Assembly (NCBI RefSeq): GCF_003334315.1
Contig: NZ_QOWR01000069.1
Strand: one strand, 5' to 3'
Length of the DNA stretch: 20,033 nucleotides
DNA from: Escherichia coli
GTDB taxonomy: Bacteria > Pseudomonadota > Gammaproteobacteria > Enterobacterales > Enterobacteriaceae
In this document: piece after piece, positions 2,695 through 19,630 of the stretch
Layout of the letters: each line of letters starts with the position of its first letter
Numbering within the stretch: the stretch's first letter is position 1
Position numbers and translations under genes: made by a program
The notes under the pieces: model-generated
Seen by the model: only the letters and a program-made list of their open reading frames with translations
Told to the model about the DNA's origin: nothing
Database searches by the model: none

Positions 2695-3321
2695 ATGAAA
2701 AAGATTTGGCTGGCGCTGGCTGGTTTAGTTTTAGCGTTTAGCGCATCGGCGGCGCAGTATGAAGATGGTAAACAGTACACTACCCTGGAAAAACCGGTAG
2801 CTGGCGCGCCGCAAGTGCTGGAGTTTTTCTCTTTCTTCTGCCCGCACTGCTATCAGTTTGAAGAAGTTCTGCATATTTCTGATAATGTGAAGAAAAAACT
2901 GCCGGAAGGCGTGAAGATGACTAAATACCACGTCAACTTCATGGGTGGTGACCTGGGCAAAGATCTGACTCAGGCATGGGCTGTGGCGATGGCGCTGGGC
3001 GTGGAAGACAAAGTGACTGTTCCGCTGTTTGAAGGCGTACAGAAAACCCAGACCATTCGTTCTGCTTCTGATATCCGCGATGTATTTATCAACGCAGGTA
3101 TTAAAGGTGAAGAGTACGACGCGGCGTGGAACAGCTTCGTGGTGAAATCTCTGGTCGCTCAGCAGGAAAAAGCTGCAGCTGACGTGCAATTGCGTGGCGT
3201 TCCGGCGATGTTTGTTAACGGTAAATATCAGCTGAATCCGCAGGGTATGGATACCAGCAATATGGATGTTTTTGTTCAGCAGTATGCTGATACAGTGAAA
3301 TATCTGTCCGAGAAAAAATAA
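2695..3321 (+). CDS. dsbA: Periplasmic thiol:disulfide oxidoreductase DsbA
   Basis: 208 aa with signal peptide ([19 protein letters not shown]) and thioredoxin-fold active site CPHC; GGAGAG SD upstream. Confidence 0.97.
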
Positions 3322-9029: not shown

Positions 9030-9176
9030 GATTCGCCTGAACATGCCCTTTTTTCGTAAGTAAGCAACATAAGCTGTCACGTTTTGTGATGGCTATTAGA
9101 AATTCCTATGCAACAACTGAAAAAAAATTACAAAAAGTGCTTTCTGAACTGAACAAAAAAGAGTAAAGTTAGTCGC

Positions 9177-9285
9177 GTAGGGTACAGAGGTAAGATGTTC
9201 TATCTTTCAGACCTTTTACTTCACGTAATCGGATTTGGCTGAATATTTTAGCCGCCCCAGTCAGTAATGACTGGGGCGTTTTTTA
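9177..9285 (+). ncRNA. spf: Spot 42 small regulatory RNA
   Basis: Sequence gtagggtacagaggtaagatgttctatctttcagacc... ending in the terminator hairpin ccccagtcagtaatgactgggg plus T-run, recognised as Spot 42; -10-like taaagt at 9164-9169. Confidence 0.9.
9195..9242 (+). CDS. spfP: 15-aa small protein encoded within Spot 42 (SpfP-like), MFYLSDLLLHVIGFG
   Basis: ATG at 9195 preceded by AGAGG; 15 sense codons then TGA, translated by hand. A dual-function Spot 42 peptide has been reported. Confidence 0.5.
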   Translation: MFYLSDLLLHVIGFG

Positions 9286-9410: not shown

Positions 9411-10043
9411 TTATTCGCCGTCCTGCGTTTCTTCTACAGGCTGCATCTCGCTAAACCAGGTATCCAGTTTCTGCCGCAGCTTGTCCACGCCTTGTTTCTT
9501 CAACGAAGAAAACGTTTCAACCTGCACATCACCGTTAAACGCCAGTACAGCTTCACGCACCATATTCAATTGCGCTTTACGTGCGCCGCTTGCCAGTTTG
9601 TCCGCTTTGGTCAGCAGCACCAGAACGGCGATATTGCTGTCTACCGCCCACTCAATCATCTGCTGATCCAAATCTTTCAGCGGATGGCGAATATCCATTA
9701 GCACCACCAGACCTTGCAGGCTCTGACGTTTTTCGAGGTATTCGCCGAGCGCACGCTGCCATTTGCGCTTCATCTCTTCCGGGACTTCCGCATAACCGTA
9801 CCCAGGCAAGTCAACCAGACGCTTGCCGTCAGCCACTTCAAACAGGTTGATAAGCTGGGTGCGCCCTGGGGTTTTTGAGGTACGAGCCAGGCTTTTCTGG
9901 TTAGTCAGCGTGTTCAGCGCGCTGGATTTACCTGCGTTGGAACGGCCTGCAAAAGCCACTTCAATTCCGGTATCGGAAGGTAGGTGGCGAATATCAGGCG
10001 CACTCATCACAAAATGCGTCTGTTGATAATTCAAATTAGTCAA
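9411..10043 (-). CDS. engB: Ribosome-biogenesis GTPase EngB (YihA)
   Basis: 210 aa with G1 motif GRSNAGKSS and DLPGYG G3 region. Confidence 0.95.
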
Positions 10044-10313
10044 AGCGGTCGTCTCCGTCAGTCAAAGCTTTGTGGCGATTATACCTGAACCATAATAAAA
10101 GGCGGATTTTTCGGCGTGAGCGTTGTAAGTAAAAGCCATACGCTTTGTGAGACATTGCCGATAGTCTTTATGCGAAATAGCAGAGAAAATTCTACGATGC
10201 ATGTCAAATAAGCTATATAAATCAGTGAATTGCTTTTATATAAAACTCTGAAAATGTGCAAATACTGATGGCGGTTGATTGTTTGTTTAAAGCAAAGGCG
10301 TAAAGTAGCACCC

Positions 10314-10556
10314 ATAGAGCGAGGACGCTAACAGGAACAATGACTCAGGATGAGGGTCAGGAGCGCCAGGAGGCGAAGACAGAGGATTGTCAGGAAGACA
10401 AACGTCCGGAGACGTAATTAAACGGAAATGGAATCAACACGGATTGTTCTGGCTAATGGAAAAACAGGGTGTGTTGGCGGCCTGCAAGGATTGTAAGACC
10501 CGTTAAGGGTTATGAGTCAGGAAAAAAGGCGACAGATTACTCTGTCGCCTTTTTTC
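10314..10556 (+). ncRNA. csrC: CsrC, CsrA-sequestering sRNA
   Basis: About 243 nt with 14 GGA triplets, mostly as AGGA/CAGGA, far above chance; -10-like taaagt at 10301-10306; ends in terminator aaaaaaggcgacag...ctgtcgcctttttt; sits between engB and yihI. 5' end approximate. Confidence 0.85.
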
Positions 10557-10624
10557 TTTGCTTGCTTTCTGTTAGATTCCGCCGCAAATCTATACTGAAT
10601 AAAACGGCTAAAAGACGAACCATT

Positions 10625-11131
10625 ATGAAACCATCTTCACCATCACGCAGCAAAGGTCATGCAAAAGCGCGTCGCAAAACGCGCGAAGAGCTGAATCAGG
10701 AAGCTCGTGACCGCAAGCGTCAGAAAAAACGTCGTGGTCATGCGCCGGGCAGCCGCGCAGCGGGCGGTAACACCACGTCAGGCAGCAAAGGCCAGAACGC
10801 ACCAAAAGATCCACGTATTGGCAGTAAAACCCCTATTCCATTGGGCGTGACTGAAAAAGTCACCAAACAGCACAAACCGAAGAGTGAGAAACCTATGCTT
10901 TCACCGCAGGCGGAGTTGGAATTACTGGAAACGGATGAGCGTCTGGATGCGCTGCTGGAACGTCTGGAAGCAGGCGAAACCCTGAGTGCCGAAGAGCAAT
11001 CCTGGGTGGATGCTAAACTGGATCGTATTGATGAGTTGATGCAGAAACTCGGCCTCTCTTATGACGATGACGAAGAAGAGGAAGAAGACGAGAAGCAAGA
11101 AGACATGATGCGTCTGCTGCGGGGCAACTAA
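10625..11131 (+). CDS. yihI: Der GTPase-activating protein YihI
   Basis: Start at [18 protein letters not shown]...; highly basic N-terminus and acidic D/E-rich C-terminus. The ORF-track upstream extension from 10469 overlaps the CsrC terminator and is rejected. Confidence 0.9.
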
Positions 11132-11143
11132 CGGATTGCCGCC

Positions 11144-17350: not shown

Positions 17351-17439
17351 CGCACCATCGTGCAAAAGGGCTGCACCACGATGTGAATGTTGCACCAATA
17401 TAGTGCTTCAATGGAAACATTAAGCACCATGTTGGTGCA
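17351..17439 (-). promoter_or_regulatory. Cluster of NtrC enhancer binding sites upstream of glnAp2
   Basis: Repeated TGCACC/GGTGCA half-sites: tgcaccaatatagtgct (17391-17407), agcaccatgttggtgca (17423-17439), weaker copies at 17351-17388. Confidence 0.65.
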
Positions 17440-17590
17440 ATGACCTTTGGATAACCCTTTTTATGCTCCGTGAAAGCGATCACAAAGGGACTCTGCAATA
17501 CTTGTTTGCGGAGGATGTTTGTGATCCTGTTTTGTAGTGCGATTAATCCGTGTACAATAACGCGCTATTTCTAATGCCTGAGGCAAAGTT

Positions 17591-19414
17591 GTGATCGAAA
17601 AATTGCGTAATATCGCCATCATCGCGCACGTAGACCATGGTAAAACCACCCTGGTAGACAAGCTGCTCCAACAATCCGGTACGTTCGACTCTCGTGCCGA
17701 AACCCAAGAGCGCGTGATGGACTCCAACGATTTGGAGAAAGAGCGTGGGATTACCATCCTCGCGAAAAACACCGCTATCAAATGGAATGATTACCGTATC
17801 AACATCGTTGATACCCCGGGGCACGCCGACTTCGGTGGTGAAGTTGAACGTGTAATGTCCATGGTAGACTCAGTGCTGCTGGTGGTTGACGCATTTGACG
17901 GCCCGATGCCGCAAACGCGCTTCGTAACCAAAAAAGCGTTTGCTTACGGCCTGAAGCCGATTGTTGTTATCAACAAAGTTGACCGCCCTGGCGCGCGTCC
18001 TGATTGGGTTGTGGATCAGGTATTCGATCTGTTCGTTAACCTCGACGCGACCGACGAGCAGCTGGACTTCCCGATCGTTTACGCTTCTGCGCTGAACGGT
18101 ATCGCGGGTCTGGACCACGAAGATATGGCGGAAGACATGACCCCGCTGTATCAGGCGATTGTTGATCACGTTCCTGCGCCGGACGTTGACCTTGACGGTC
18201 CGTTCCAGATGCAGATTTCTCAGCTCGATTACAACAGCTATGTTGGCGTTATCGGCATTGGCCGCATCAAGCGCGGTAAAGTGAAGCCGAACCAACAGGT
18301 CACTATCATCGATAGCGAAGGCAAAACCCGCAACGCGAAAGTCGGTAAAGTGCTGGGCCACCTCGGTCTGGAACGTATCGAAACCGATCTGGCGGAAGCT
18401 GGCGATATCGTGGCGATCACGGGCCTTGGCGAACTGAACATTTCTGACACCGTTTGCGACACGCAAAACGTTGAAGCGCTGCCGGCACTCTCCGTTGATG
18501 AGCCGACCGTTTCTATGTTCTTCTGCGTTAACACCTCGCCGTTCTGCGGTAAAGAAGGTAAGTTCGTAACGTCTCGTCAGATCCTGGATCGTCTGAACAA
18601 AGAACTGGTACACAACGTTGCGCTGCGCGTAGAAGAAACCGAAGACGCCGATGCGTTCCGCGTTTCTGGTCGTGGCGAACTGCACCTGTCTGTTCTGATC
18701 GAAAACATGCGTCGTGAAGGTTTCGAACTGGCGGTATCCCGTCCGAAAGTTATCTTCCGTGAAATCGACGGTCGTAAACAAGAGCCGTATGAAAACGTGA
18801 CGCTGGACGTTGAAGAACAGCATCAGGGTTCTGTAATGCAGGCGCTGGGCGAACGTAAAGGCGACCTGAAAAACATGAATCCAGACGGTAAAGGCCGCGT
18901 ACGTCTCGACTACGTGATCCCAAGCCGTGGTCTGATTGGCTTCCGTTCTGAGTTCATGACCATGACTTCCGGTACTGGTCTGCTGTACTCCACCTTCAGC
19001 CACTACGACGACGTACGTCCGGGTGAAGTGGGTCAGCGTCAGAACGGCGTACTGATCTCTAACGGTCAGGGTAAAGCGGTCGCGTTCGCGCTGTTCGGTC
19101 TGCAGGATCGCGGTAAGCTGTTCCTCGGTCACGGTGCAGAAGTTTACGAAGGTCAGATTATCGGTATTCATAGCCGCTCTAACGACCTGACTGTAAACTG
19201 CCTGACCGGTAAGAAACTGACCAACATGCGTGCTTCCGGTACTGACGAAGCCGTTGTTCTGGTTCCGCCTATCCGCATGACTCTGGAACAAGCTCTGGAG
19301 TTCATCGATGATGACGAACTGGTAGAAGTGACCCCGACCTCTATCCGTATTCGTAAACGTCACCTGACGGAAAACGATCGTCGTCGCGCCAACCGCGCAC
19401 CGAAAGACGATTAA
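17591..19414 (+). CDS. typA: Ribosome-associated translational GTPase BipA/TypA
   Basis: 607 aa, GTG start with GAGG SD; G-domain motifs [18 protein letters not shown]; EF-G-like domain architecture. Confidence 0.97.
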
Positions 19415-19431
19415 TTTCGTTTTTTAGTCAT

Positions 19432-19464
19432 AAAAAACCTGCCAGCGATGGCAGGTTTTTTTTT
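19432..19464 (+). terminator. Rho-independent terminator of typA
   Basis: A-run, stem cctgcca / tggcagg with 4-nt loop, then nine T. Confidence 0.85.
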
Positions 19465-19630
19465 GCCTGTCGTGAGCACTCAGCAATGCGAGTATCTCCC
19501 TTATAAGTCTGTGGTTACGTCAATAGAGAGCTTTGTCACAATTATCTGCAAAGTCATACGCCGTTAATTGCTTTCTTTTTTGGCGTAAGCGTAAGATGCC
19601 TCATCTGGTTTAAACCAAAAGGATTAAACA

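Follow-up and report, generated by a model that had tools for sequence, protein, structure and literature searches.

The segment at 10314-10559 on the plus strand of the 20,033-nt stretch of DNA analysed here (the window) is almost certainly csrC of Escherichia coli, the gene for the small non-coding RNA CsrC. In a scan of the window with all of Rfam, the CsrC family (RF00084) matched at 10314-10567 with 276.9 bits against a gathering score of 61 (E = 7.6e-88), and the match spanned model positions 1-255 of 255, an untruncated hit with the score expected of a family member; clan competition in Rfam also gave the locus to CsrC. The csrC gene of K-12 MG1655 (b4457, 4051036-4051281) aligned exactly to 10314-10559 with 242 of 246 nucleotides identical (98.4%), and the 5' end at 10314 is both the start of the Rfam model and the annotated K-12 start. 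A preliminary description, made from the letters of the sequence, had named this element CsrC and pointed to a covariance-model search as a check on the name; the full-length Rfam match, the identity to K-12 and the synteny set out below show that the name was right. Of the ends it gave, 10314-10556, the start agrees with Rfam and K-12, but the K-12 annotation runs 3 nt further, to 10559. The csrC element is already known, a textbook element, and its recognition here brings no new biology. The gene and its immediate neighbours are located as follows.

10314-10559, plus strand: csrC gene, 246-nt CsrC sRNA, from the Rfam RF00084 match and the ends of K-12 b4457.
9411-10043, minus strand: yihA (engB), divergent upstream neighbour.
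10625-11131, plus strand: yihI (Der GTPase-activating protein), downstream neighbour, from the RefSeq annotation of a 100% identical strain, with the ORF ending at 11131.

The order yihA-csrC-yihI is that of K-12, with csrC on the same strand as yihI, and this is the location at which CsrC is expected, as csrC homologues always adjoin yihA and yihI (PMC1488887). Further out, Spot 42 and polA upstream and hemN downstream are also arranged as in K-12. A 651-nt query around csrC matched 5426 of 5426 complete E. coli genomes, several of them at 100% identity, and csrC itself (at least 80% of the query matched) was present in 5425 of them. The one remaining complete genome gave no megablast match to csrC, yet the 651-nt query with its flanks still matches there, and this genome may carry a natural deletion or disruption of csrC.

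Other RNA features were also detected in the window. The Spot 42 sRNA (spf) lies at 9167-9285 on the plus strand (122.8 bits in Rfam against a gathering score of 80), and the K-12 annotation also places the small protein SpfP inside it. The ES222 sRNA, at 17402-17509 on the plus strand (135.3 bits against 62), sits in the glnA-bipA intergenic gap on the bipA strand, so a 5' leader of bipA (typA) is the probable identity; ES222 is also found in Citrobacter werkmanii with 82.4 bits. STnc370, at 19399-19467 on the plus strand, is a borderline Rfam match (55.6 bits against 54) inside the 3' end of bipA by K-12 coordinates.

The motif content of the segment is that of an RNA that binds many copies of CsrA. 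Fourteen GGA motifs, exactly the number given in the preliminary description, lie on the plus strand between 10314 and 10556 (at 10323, 10334, 10348, 10360, 10369, 10384, 10393, 10408, 10424, 10430, 10441, 10458, 10488 and 10520), and because the complement TCC occurs only once in the same segment, the motif is strand-specific in CsrC. Twelve of the motifs fall within the first 148 nt at distances of 6-17 nt, and the last two follow 30 and 32 nt apart. No other 243-nt stretch of the window, on either strand, reaches this count. With 276 GGA in the whole window, 3.35 are predicted per 243 nt, and CsrC carries 4.2 times that number, which agrees with the earlier estimate of roughly four times chance as far as the window-wide rate is concerned. 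The segment is 63% purine, and part of the excess follows from this composition: mononucleotide frequencies predict 7.6 GGA, dinucleotide-preserving shuffles of CsrC contain 9.0 +/- 2.0 (with 14 reached in 18 of 2000), and against matched composition the enrichment is only about 1.6-fold (p about 0.01).

The second-densest GGA cluster of the window, at 10893-11135 in the 3' half of yihI, has 11 GGA per 243 nt and at most three AGGA, and most likely arises from the Glu and Asp codons of an acidic tail. That a coding stretch reaches 11 shows that the plain GGA count discriminates poorly. AGGA gives a sharper signal, with 9 per 240 nt in CsrC against at most three anywhere else in the 20-kb window. 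The statement that most motifs stand in AGGA or CAGGA contexts holds for AGGA (9/14) but not for CAGGA taken alone (6/14).

These counts bear on the reading that the GGA cluster is only a side effect of a segment rich in purines, without any function. Composition alone does predict more than half of the motifs (7.6-9.0), and the yihI stretch has its 11 GGA with no known link to CsrA; the threefold higher AGGA density of CsrC relative to the rest of the window is not expected from such a by-product, and the structural and comparative evidence below weighs further against it.

The folding of CsrC was examined by mapping the Rfam CsrC consensus structure onto the window sequence, which yielded the following hairpins.

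10318-10329, plus strand: hairpin 1, loop AGGA, from the Rfam structure; pair 5-16 of the homologue alignment shows a compensatory change from AU to GC in 6 sequences.
10341-10359, plus strand: hairpin 2, loop AGGAUGA, from the Rfam structure and also in the minimum-free-energy fold.
10364-10375, plus strand: hairpin 3, CGCC-AGGA-GGCG, invariant in 15/15 homologues, with P(unpaired) of its GGA at 0.99.
10378-10391, plus strand: hairpin 4, loop GAGGAU, from the Rfam structure; 88.5% of cells paired across homologues.
10402-10415, plus strand: hairpin 5, loop CGGA, in the Rfam and minimum-free-energy structures; 94.7% of cells paired and two pairs with compensatory changes.
10435-10476, plus strand: hairpin 6, long and imperfect, with the GGA at 10441 and 10458 in or next to the stem; about 80% of cells paired.
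10484-10494, plus strand: hairpin 7, short, loop AAGGAUU, from the Rfam structure.
10498-10510, plus strand: hairpin 8, ACCC-GUUAA-GGGU, without GGA, in the Rfam and minimum-free-energy structures; 98.3% of cells paired.

The loop of hairpin 2 presumably resembles the SELEX-derived CsrA site, and hairpin 7 is weak on its own because it has only 2 base pairs. In the consensus structure, 11 of the 14 GGA motifs are in hairpin loops or single-stranded linkers: six in loops, at 10323 (AGGA), 10348 (AGGAUGA), 10369 (AGGA), 10384 (GAGGAU), 10408 (CGGA) and 10488 (AAGGAUU), and five in linkers, at 10334, 10360, 10393, 10424 and 10430. The remaining three, at 10441, 10458 and 10520, are in or beside stems even there. 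Consistent with this exposure, the mean unpaired probability of GGA in the single-sequence ensemble is 0.61, compared with 0.40 for random trinucleotide sets (p = 0.0055). The preliminary description had held that GGA motifs buried in stems would speak against its reading, and the folding places the large majority of them outside stems instead. As a whole, CsrC folds at -84.3 kcal/mol, against -59.4 +/- 4.0 kcal/mol for shuffled sequences (z = -6.3). The minimum-free-energy fold of the single sequence contains an extra long-range helix between the 5' and 3' parts that buries the first GGA, and several of the 3' GGA motifs are paired in it; this long-range helix is absent from the consensus structure and was given little weight.

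Homologues were collected by scanning a species-representative genome collection (298 Gb) for exact occurrences of the 16-nt pattern AGCGCCAGGAGGCGAA, taken from the invariant hairpin 3 of CsrC. A pattern of 16 nt is too short for a collection of this size, and so about 105 of the at least 120 loci returned are chance matches in unrelated phyla; 15 enterobacterial csrC loci were found among the matches listed. These come from nine genera, including Escherichia, Citrobacter, Enterobacter, Superficieibacter, Pseudocitrobacter, Pluralibacter, Pseudescherichia and Kosakonia. Every one of the 15 homologues gave a full-length CsrC score (140-275 bits), and Spot 42 lies about 1 kb upstream in 12 of the loci, the other three extending too little upstream to tell; yihI is downstream of csrC in 14/14 aligned taxa. 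The pattern also occurs in eight Pseudomonas and two Billgrantia species among the matches listed, and at these ten loci none of the Rfam families attained its gathering score; one match in Vibrio and three in gammaproteobacterial MAGs likewise lacked a Csr or Rsm family hit.

Across the 15 homologues, mean column identity is 82%, and each sequence has 13-15 GGA and 0-2 TCC and keeps the same hairpins. In the helices of the Rfam structure, 89.5% of cells hold a standard pair, and shifting the 3' partners by 1-3 columns lowers this share to 39-47%. Compensatory changes on both sides occur in 6 pairs; the near-invariance of most helices in such close relatives leaves little covariation to be seen. 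The retention of 13-15 GGA across nine genera despite 18% mean column divergence, together with the preferential placement of the motifs in loops, the covariance-model match and published experiments on the near-identical K-12 RNA, leaves next to no probability for the view that the clustering merely follows composition, and we rejected it as practically refuted by the conservation and structure data.

A second alternative is that the region encodes a small protein with AGGA serving as Shine-Dalgarno sequence, either in place of the sponge function or in addition to it, as in a dual-function RNA. Four ATG ORFs of 16-25 codons are present on the plus strand, among them MTQDEGQERQEAKTEDCQEDKRPET, which starts at 10340, and MRVRSARRRRQRIVRKTNVRRRN, which starts at 10350, and in RefSeq genomes the PGAP annotation has a 'hypothetical protein' feature here, which is frameshifted with an internal stop. 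PGAP itself marks that feature as a broken pseudogene, though, and the ORFs do not behave as genes between genera: MTQDEGQERQEAKTEDCQEDKRPET is absent from all Citrobacter sequences, and MRVRSARRRRQRIVRKTNVRRRN is lost in Enterobacter, Pluralibacter, Pseudescherichia and Kosakonia, where the RNAs still score 140-240 bits as CsrC. Those ORFs that persist merely follow the nucleotide conservation of the hairpins, and the pattern that is conserved is one of GGA motifs and helices, not of a reading frame. With none of the four ORFs conserved across genera, the coding reading is barely credible and was rejected. The PGAP pseudogene covers about 10340-10506 of the window (2791-2957 of locus L001), and an ncRNA feature is absent there. 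A 'hypothetical protein' lies under the csrC match in every genome among the matches listed, and E. coli csrC is commonly labelled in RefSeq by PGAP as a broken 'hypothetical protein' and not as an ncRNA.

Upstream of the RNA, a scan of 10000-10700 for sigma-70 consensus promoters at a threshold of 9 of 12 positions found none. The csrC promoter was instead placed from the annotated +1 and from hexamers that are invariant across genera, and the control elements given below were located by the same conservation and by published footprints.

10301-10306, plus strand: putative -10 hexamer TAAAGT, at -13 to -8; GTAAAGT is invariant in 14 aligned taxa and fits a +1 at 10314.
10279-10284, plus strand: putative -35-like hexamer TTGTTT, separated from the -10 by 16 bp; all 14 taxa share the TTGT core.
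10146-10163, plus strand: UvrY-P binding site, an 18-nt weak inverted repeat TGTGAGACATTGCCGATA, at -168 to -151.
10124-10129, plus strand: TGTAAG half-site, 16 bp upstream of the UvrY repeat, at -190 (PMC4682653), in the same place in 11/16 homologous loci.

TTGTTT is a weak match to TTGACA, and from these hexamers we infer a weak promoter that probably depends on an activator. UvrY has been mapped on csrC by ChIP-exo and DNase I footprinting, and the footprint of phospho-UvrY is the weakly symmetric sequence TGTGAGACATTGCCGATA (Zere et al. 2015, PMC4682653), which occurs once in the window, without mismatch, at 10146-10163. The core of this site, TGTGAG/TGTAGG...AT, is found at the same distance (about -168 to -153) in most of the 14 taxa. 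A second UvrY crosslinking site, at -49 to +32, was seen in vivo without an in vitro footprint, and IHF is not needed for csrC (PMC4682653). Repression of csrC in E. coli comes from cAMP-CRP, which competes with UvrY upstream (PMC7591399, citing Pannuri et al. 2016). The generic UvrY/GacA box TGTRAG-N6-CTYACA, with up to three mismatches allowed, has 12 matches in the window against 18.6 expected by chance, and the csrC site itself, with three mismatches to this consensus, is unrecognisable from the consensus alone; its assignment is owed to the published footprint and to conservation, not to the generic consensus.

UvrY control, which had at first been proposed for the AT-rich region ahead of the -10 element, is thus placed elsewhere. 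AT-rich palindromes are present at 10214-10221/10235-10242 and at 10234-10245 (-100 to -69), between both UvrY crosslinking sites, and were considered as a UvrY box; they are unlike the published site and show no conservation across genera, and this candidate was rejected. The comparison of the upstream inverted repeat with known UvrY boxes, suggested in the preliminary description, thus turned up neither resemblance nor conservation.

At the 3' end, CsrC closes with a Rho-independent terminator.

10519-10558, plus strand: intrinsic terminator, with a GC-rich stem GGCGACAG/CUGUCGCC extended by A6/U6 and a U-rich tail.

A terminator scan gave 18 pairs around a loop of 4. The 8-bp GC-rich stem is extended to 16-18 pairs, with a folding energy of -26.3 kcal/mol and the tail UUUUUUCUUUGCUU (U6CU3), and its pairing is kept in 98.7% of cells in the 15 homologues. 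Kulkarni et al. (2006, PMC1488887) recognised CsrA-sequestering sRNAs by a high density of AGGA/ARGGA motifs between genes, by GGA in loops or otherwise unpaired, by a Rho-independent terminator and by a conserved upstream activator (UvrY/GacA) site, and each of these is found at this locus. In total, the number, spacing and exposure of the GGA motifs, the terminator and the UvrY site fit each structural requirement of the CsrA-sequestration model.

The centre of the terminator hairpin (10535-10540) reads ATTACT, which is the exact reverse complement of AGTAAT in K-12, so that the substitutions at 10537 and 10540 represent one inversion of the hairpin loop and not two SNPs. This inversion also explains a feature of the genome searches, in which 5356 of 5425 E. 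coli genomes matched the csrC query at two places, one of them a 36-nt perfect match on the opposite strand: two places arise because the loop of the terminator palindrome is inverted relative to the query. A second csrC copy per genome was considered and ruled out, the second place being the same terminator palindrome on the opposite strand. About 69 of the 5425 complete genomes have a single match place, and judged by the number of match places the ATTACT orientation is probably a minority allele in E. coli. The same orientation is common in Citrobacter and Pseudocitrobacter, and Superficieibacter has that of K-12. As both orientations occur in E. coli and across genera, the loop has flipped more than once.

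Between the end of CsrC at 10559 and the yihI ATG at 10625 lie 65 nt; contrary to what had been stated at first, the terminator does not abut yihI, and the spacer holds a conserved promoter-like block.

10567-10598, plus strand: conserved spacer block outside CsrC, TTCTGyTAGATTCCGCCGCAAwTCTATACTGA, with a -10-like hexamer TATACT at 10591-10596.

This block is nearly invariant over 14 taxa of 9 genera, exceeds the interior of CsrC in conservation, and is probably a promoter or operator of yihI. With TATACT located 29 nt upstream of the yihI ATG, yihI is, on the simplest reading, probably transcribed from a separate promoter. A 6-bp inverted repeat in the spacer, TAGATT-N8-AATCTA (10573-10592), is found in E. 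coli only. The yihI gene itself is 507 nt here against 510 nt in K-12, and shows a 3-nt indel together with substitutions just after the start (10625-10645); at 99% identity or more, this allele is found in only about 930 of 5426 genomes, including E. coli O157:H7, and the K-12-like form, 93% identical over this segment, in about 4490 of 5426.

The short spacer gives rise to the proposal that csrC is also a 5' leader or upstream unit for yihI, with regulated read-through coupling yihI to BarA-UvrY. The two genes are on the same strand, only 65 nt apart, in an arrangement kept in all genera examined, and the yihI frame has no stop codon from 10469 to the ATG, although this comes from a purely mechanical listing of ORFs. 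Against the proposal, the terminator is canonical, strong and nearly invariant, and the spacer block with TATACT, kept in 9 genera, suggests a promoter belonging to yihI; these two features argue against any need for read-through. In the searchable literature, including the supplements of transcriptome-architecture studies, no report was found of a yihI transcription start site or of a csrC-yihI co-transcript. We consider read-through of this kind quite unlikely. A joint version, in which an incomplete csrC terminator leads into yihI and the flipping loop acts as a template-switch hotspot that tunes termination or decay, appears very unlikely, and the fact that inverting the loop alters neither the stem nor the U-tract counts against such tuning. 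Were it true, terminator leakage would create a link between the Csr/BarA-UvrY network and the Der-dependent assembly of the 50S ribosome.

The preferred reading, that the locus is an ordinary csrC gene, leads to a mechanism that is carried over from the 98.4% identical K-12 gene as far as CsrA binding, sequestration and the control of synthesis and decay are concerned. Given phosphorylated UvrY about 160 bp upstream (10146-10163), the weak promoter (TTGTTT, TAAAGT) would start transcription at 10314, and the strong intrinsic terminator would stop it to give a non-coding RNA of about 246 nt. This RNA would display its 14 GGA motifs, most of them in linkers or at the tips of short hairpins, and if each exposed GGA serves as a site for a CsrA dimer, one CsrC would tie up several dimers. 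By analogy with K-12, CsrC would then titrate CsrA from its mRNA targets and relieve CsrA control of their translation and stability, and its level would be set by synthesis (BarA-UvrY activation and cAMP-CRP repression) against CsrD- and RNase E-dependent decay.

The K-12 work on which this rests is extensive. CsrC was first described by Weilbacher et al. 2003 (as cited in PMC7652899). It carries about 14 CsrA binding sites (PMC8151843) and together with CsrB sequesters CsrA dimers away from lower-affinity mRNA sites (PMC7652899); binding of several dimers and antagonism of CsrA in vivo have been reported for it (PMC7652899, PMC8151843). Its synthesis needs BarA-UvrY and, indirectly, CsrA itself, which makes a feedback loop, and its decay needs CsrD, RNase E and PNPase, with unphosphorylated EIIA-Glc as the trigger (PMC7652899).

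CsrC of K-12 (b4457; RF00084) is the same gene as the one described here, with the same ends, neighbours, 14 GGA, promoter and UvrY site sequence, and differs by four substitutions: T here against C at 10450, T against A at 10457 (which turns AAGGA into AUGGA and keeps the GGA), and the changes at 10537 and 10540 that invert the terminator centre. CsrB of E. coli belongs to the same Rfam clan (CL00106) and, like CsrC, sequesters CsrA by GGA-loop hairpins, decays in a CsrD- and RNase E-dependent manner (PMC7652899) and is controlled by UvrY-P at a far-upstream inverted repeat (PMC4682653). Unlike CsrC, it is longer, with 22 GGA (PMC7652899) or, as counted in PMC8151843, 18 binding sites, and it adjoins syd and does not lie between yihA and yihI (PMC1488887). 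Its UvrY repeat is the near-perfect palindrome TGTGAGAGATCTCTTACA and needs IHF, whereas the csrC repeat is only weakly symmetric and functions without IHF (PMC4682653). RsmY, RsmZ and RsmX of Pseudomonas and RsmB of Pectobacterium are analogues that depend on GacA/UvrY and titrate RsmA/CsrA by GGA loops (PMC7652899, PMC1488887); they have no detectable sequence relationship to CsrC, stand in other genomic contexts and fall outside the CsrC family. Together, CsrC and CsrB set the activity of CsrA, which in enterobacteria controls carbon metabolism, biofilm formation, motility and virulence as a global post-transcriptional regulator.
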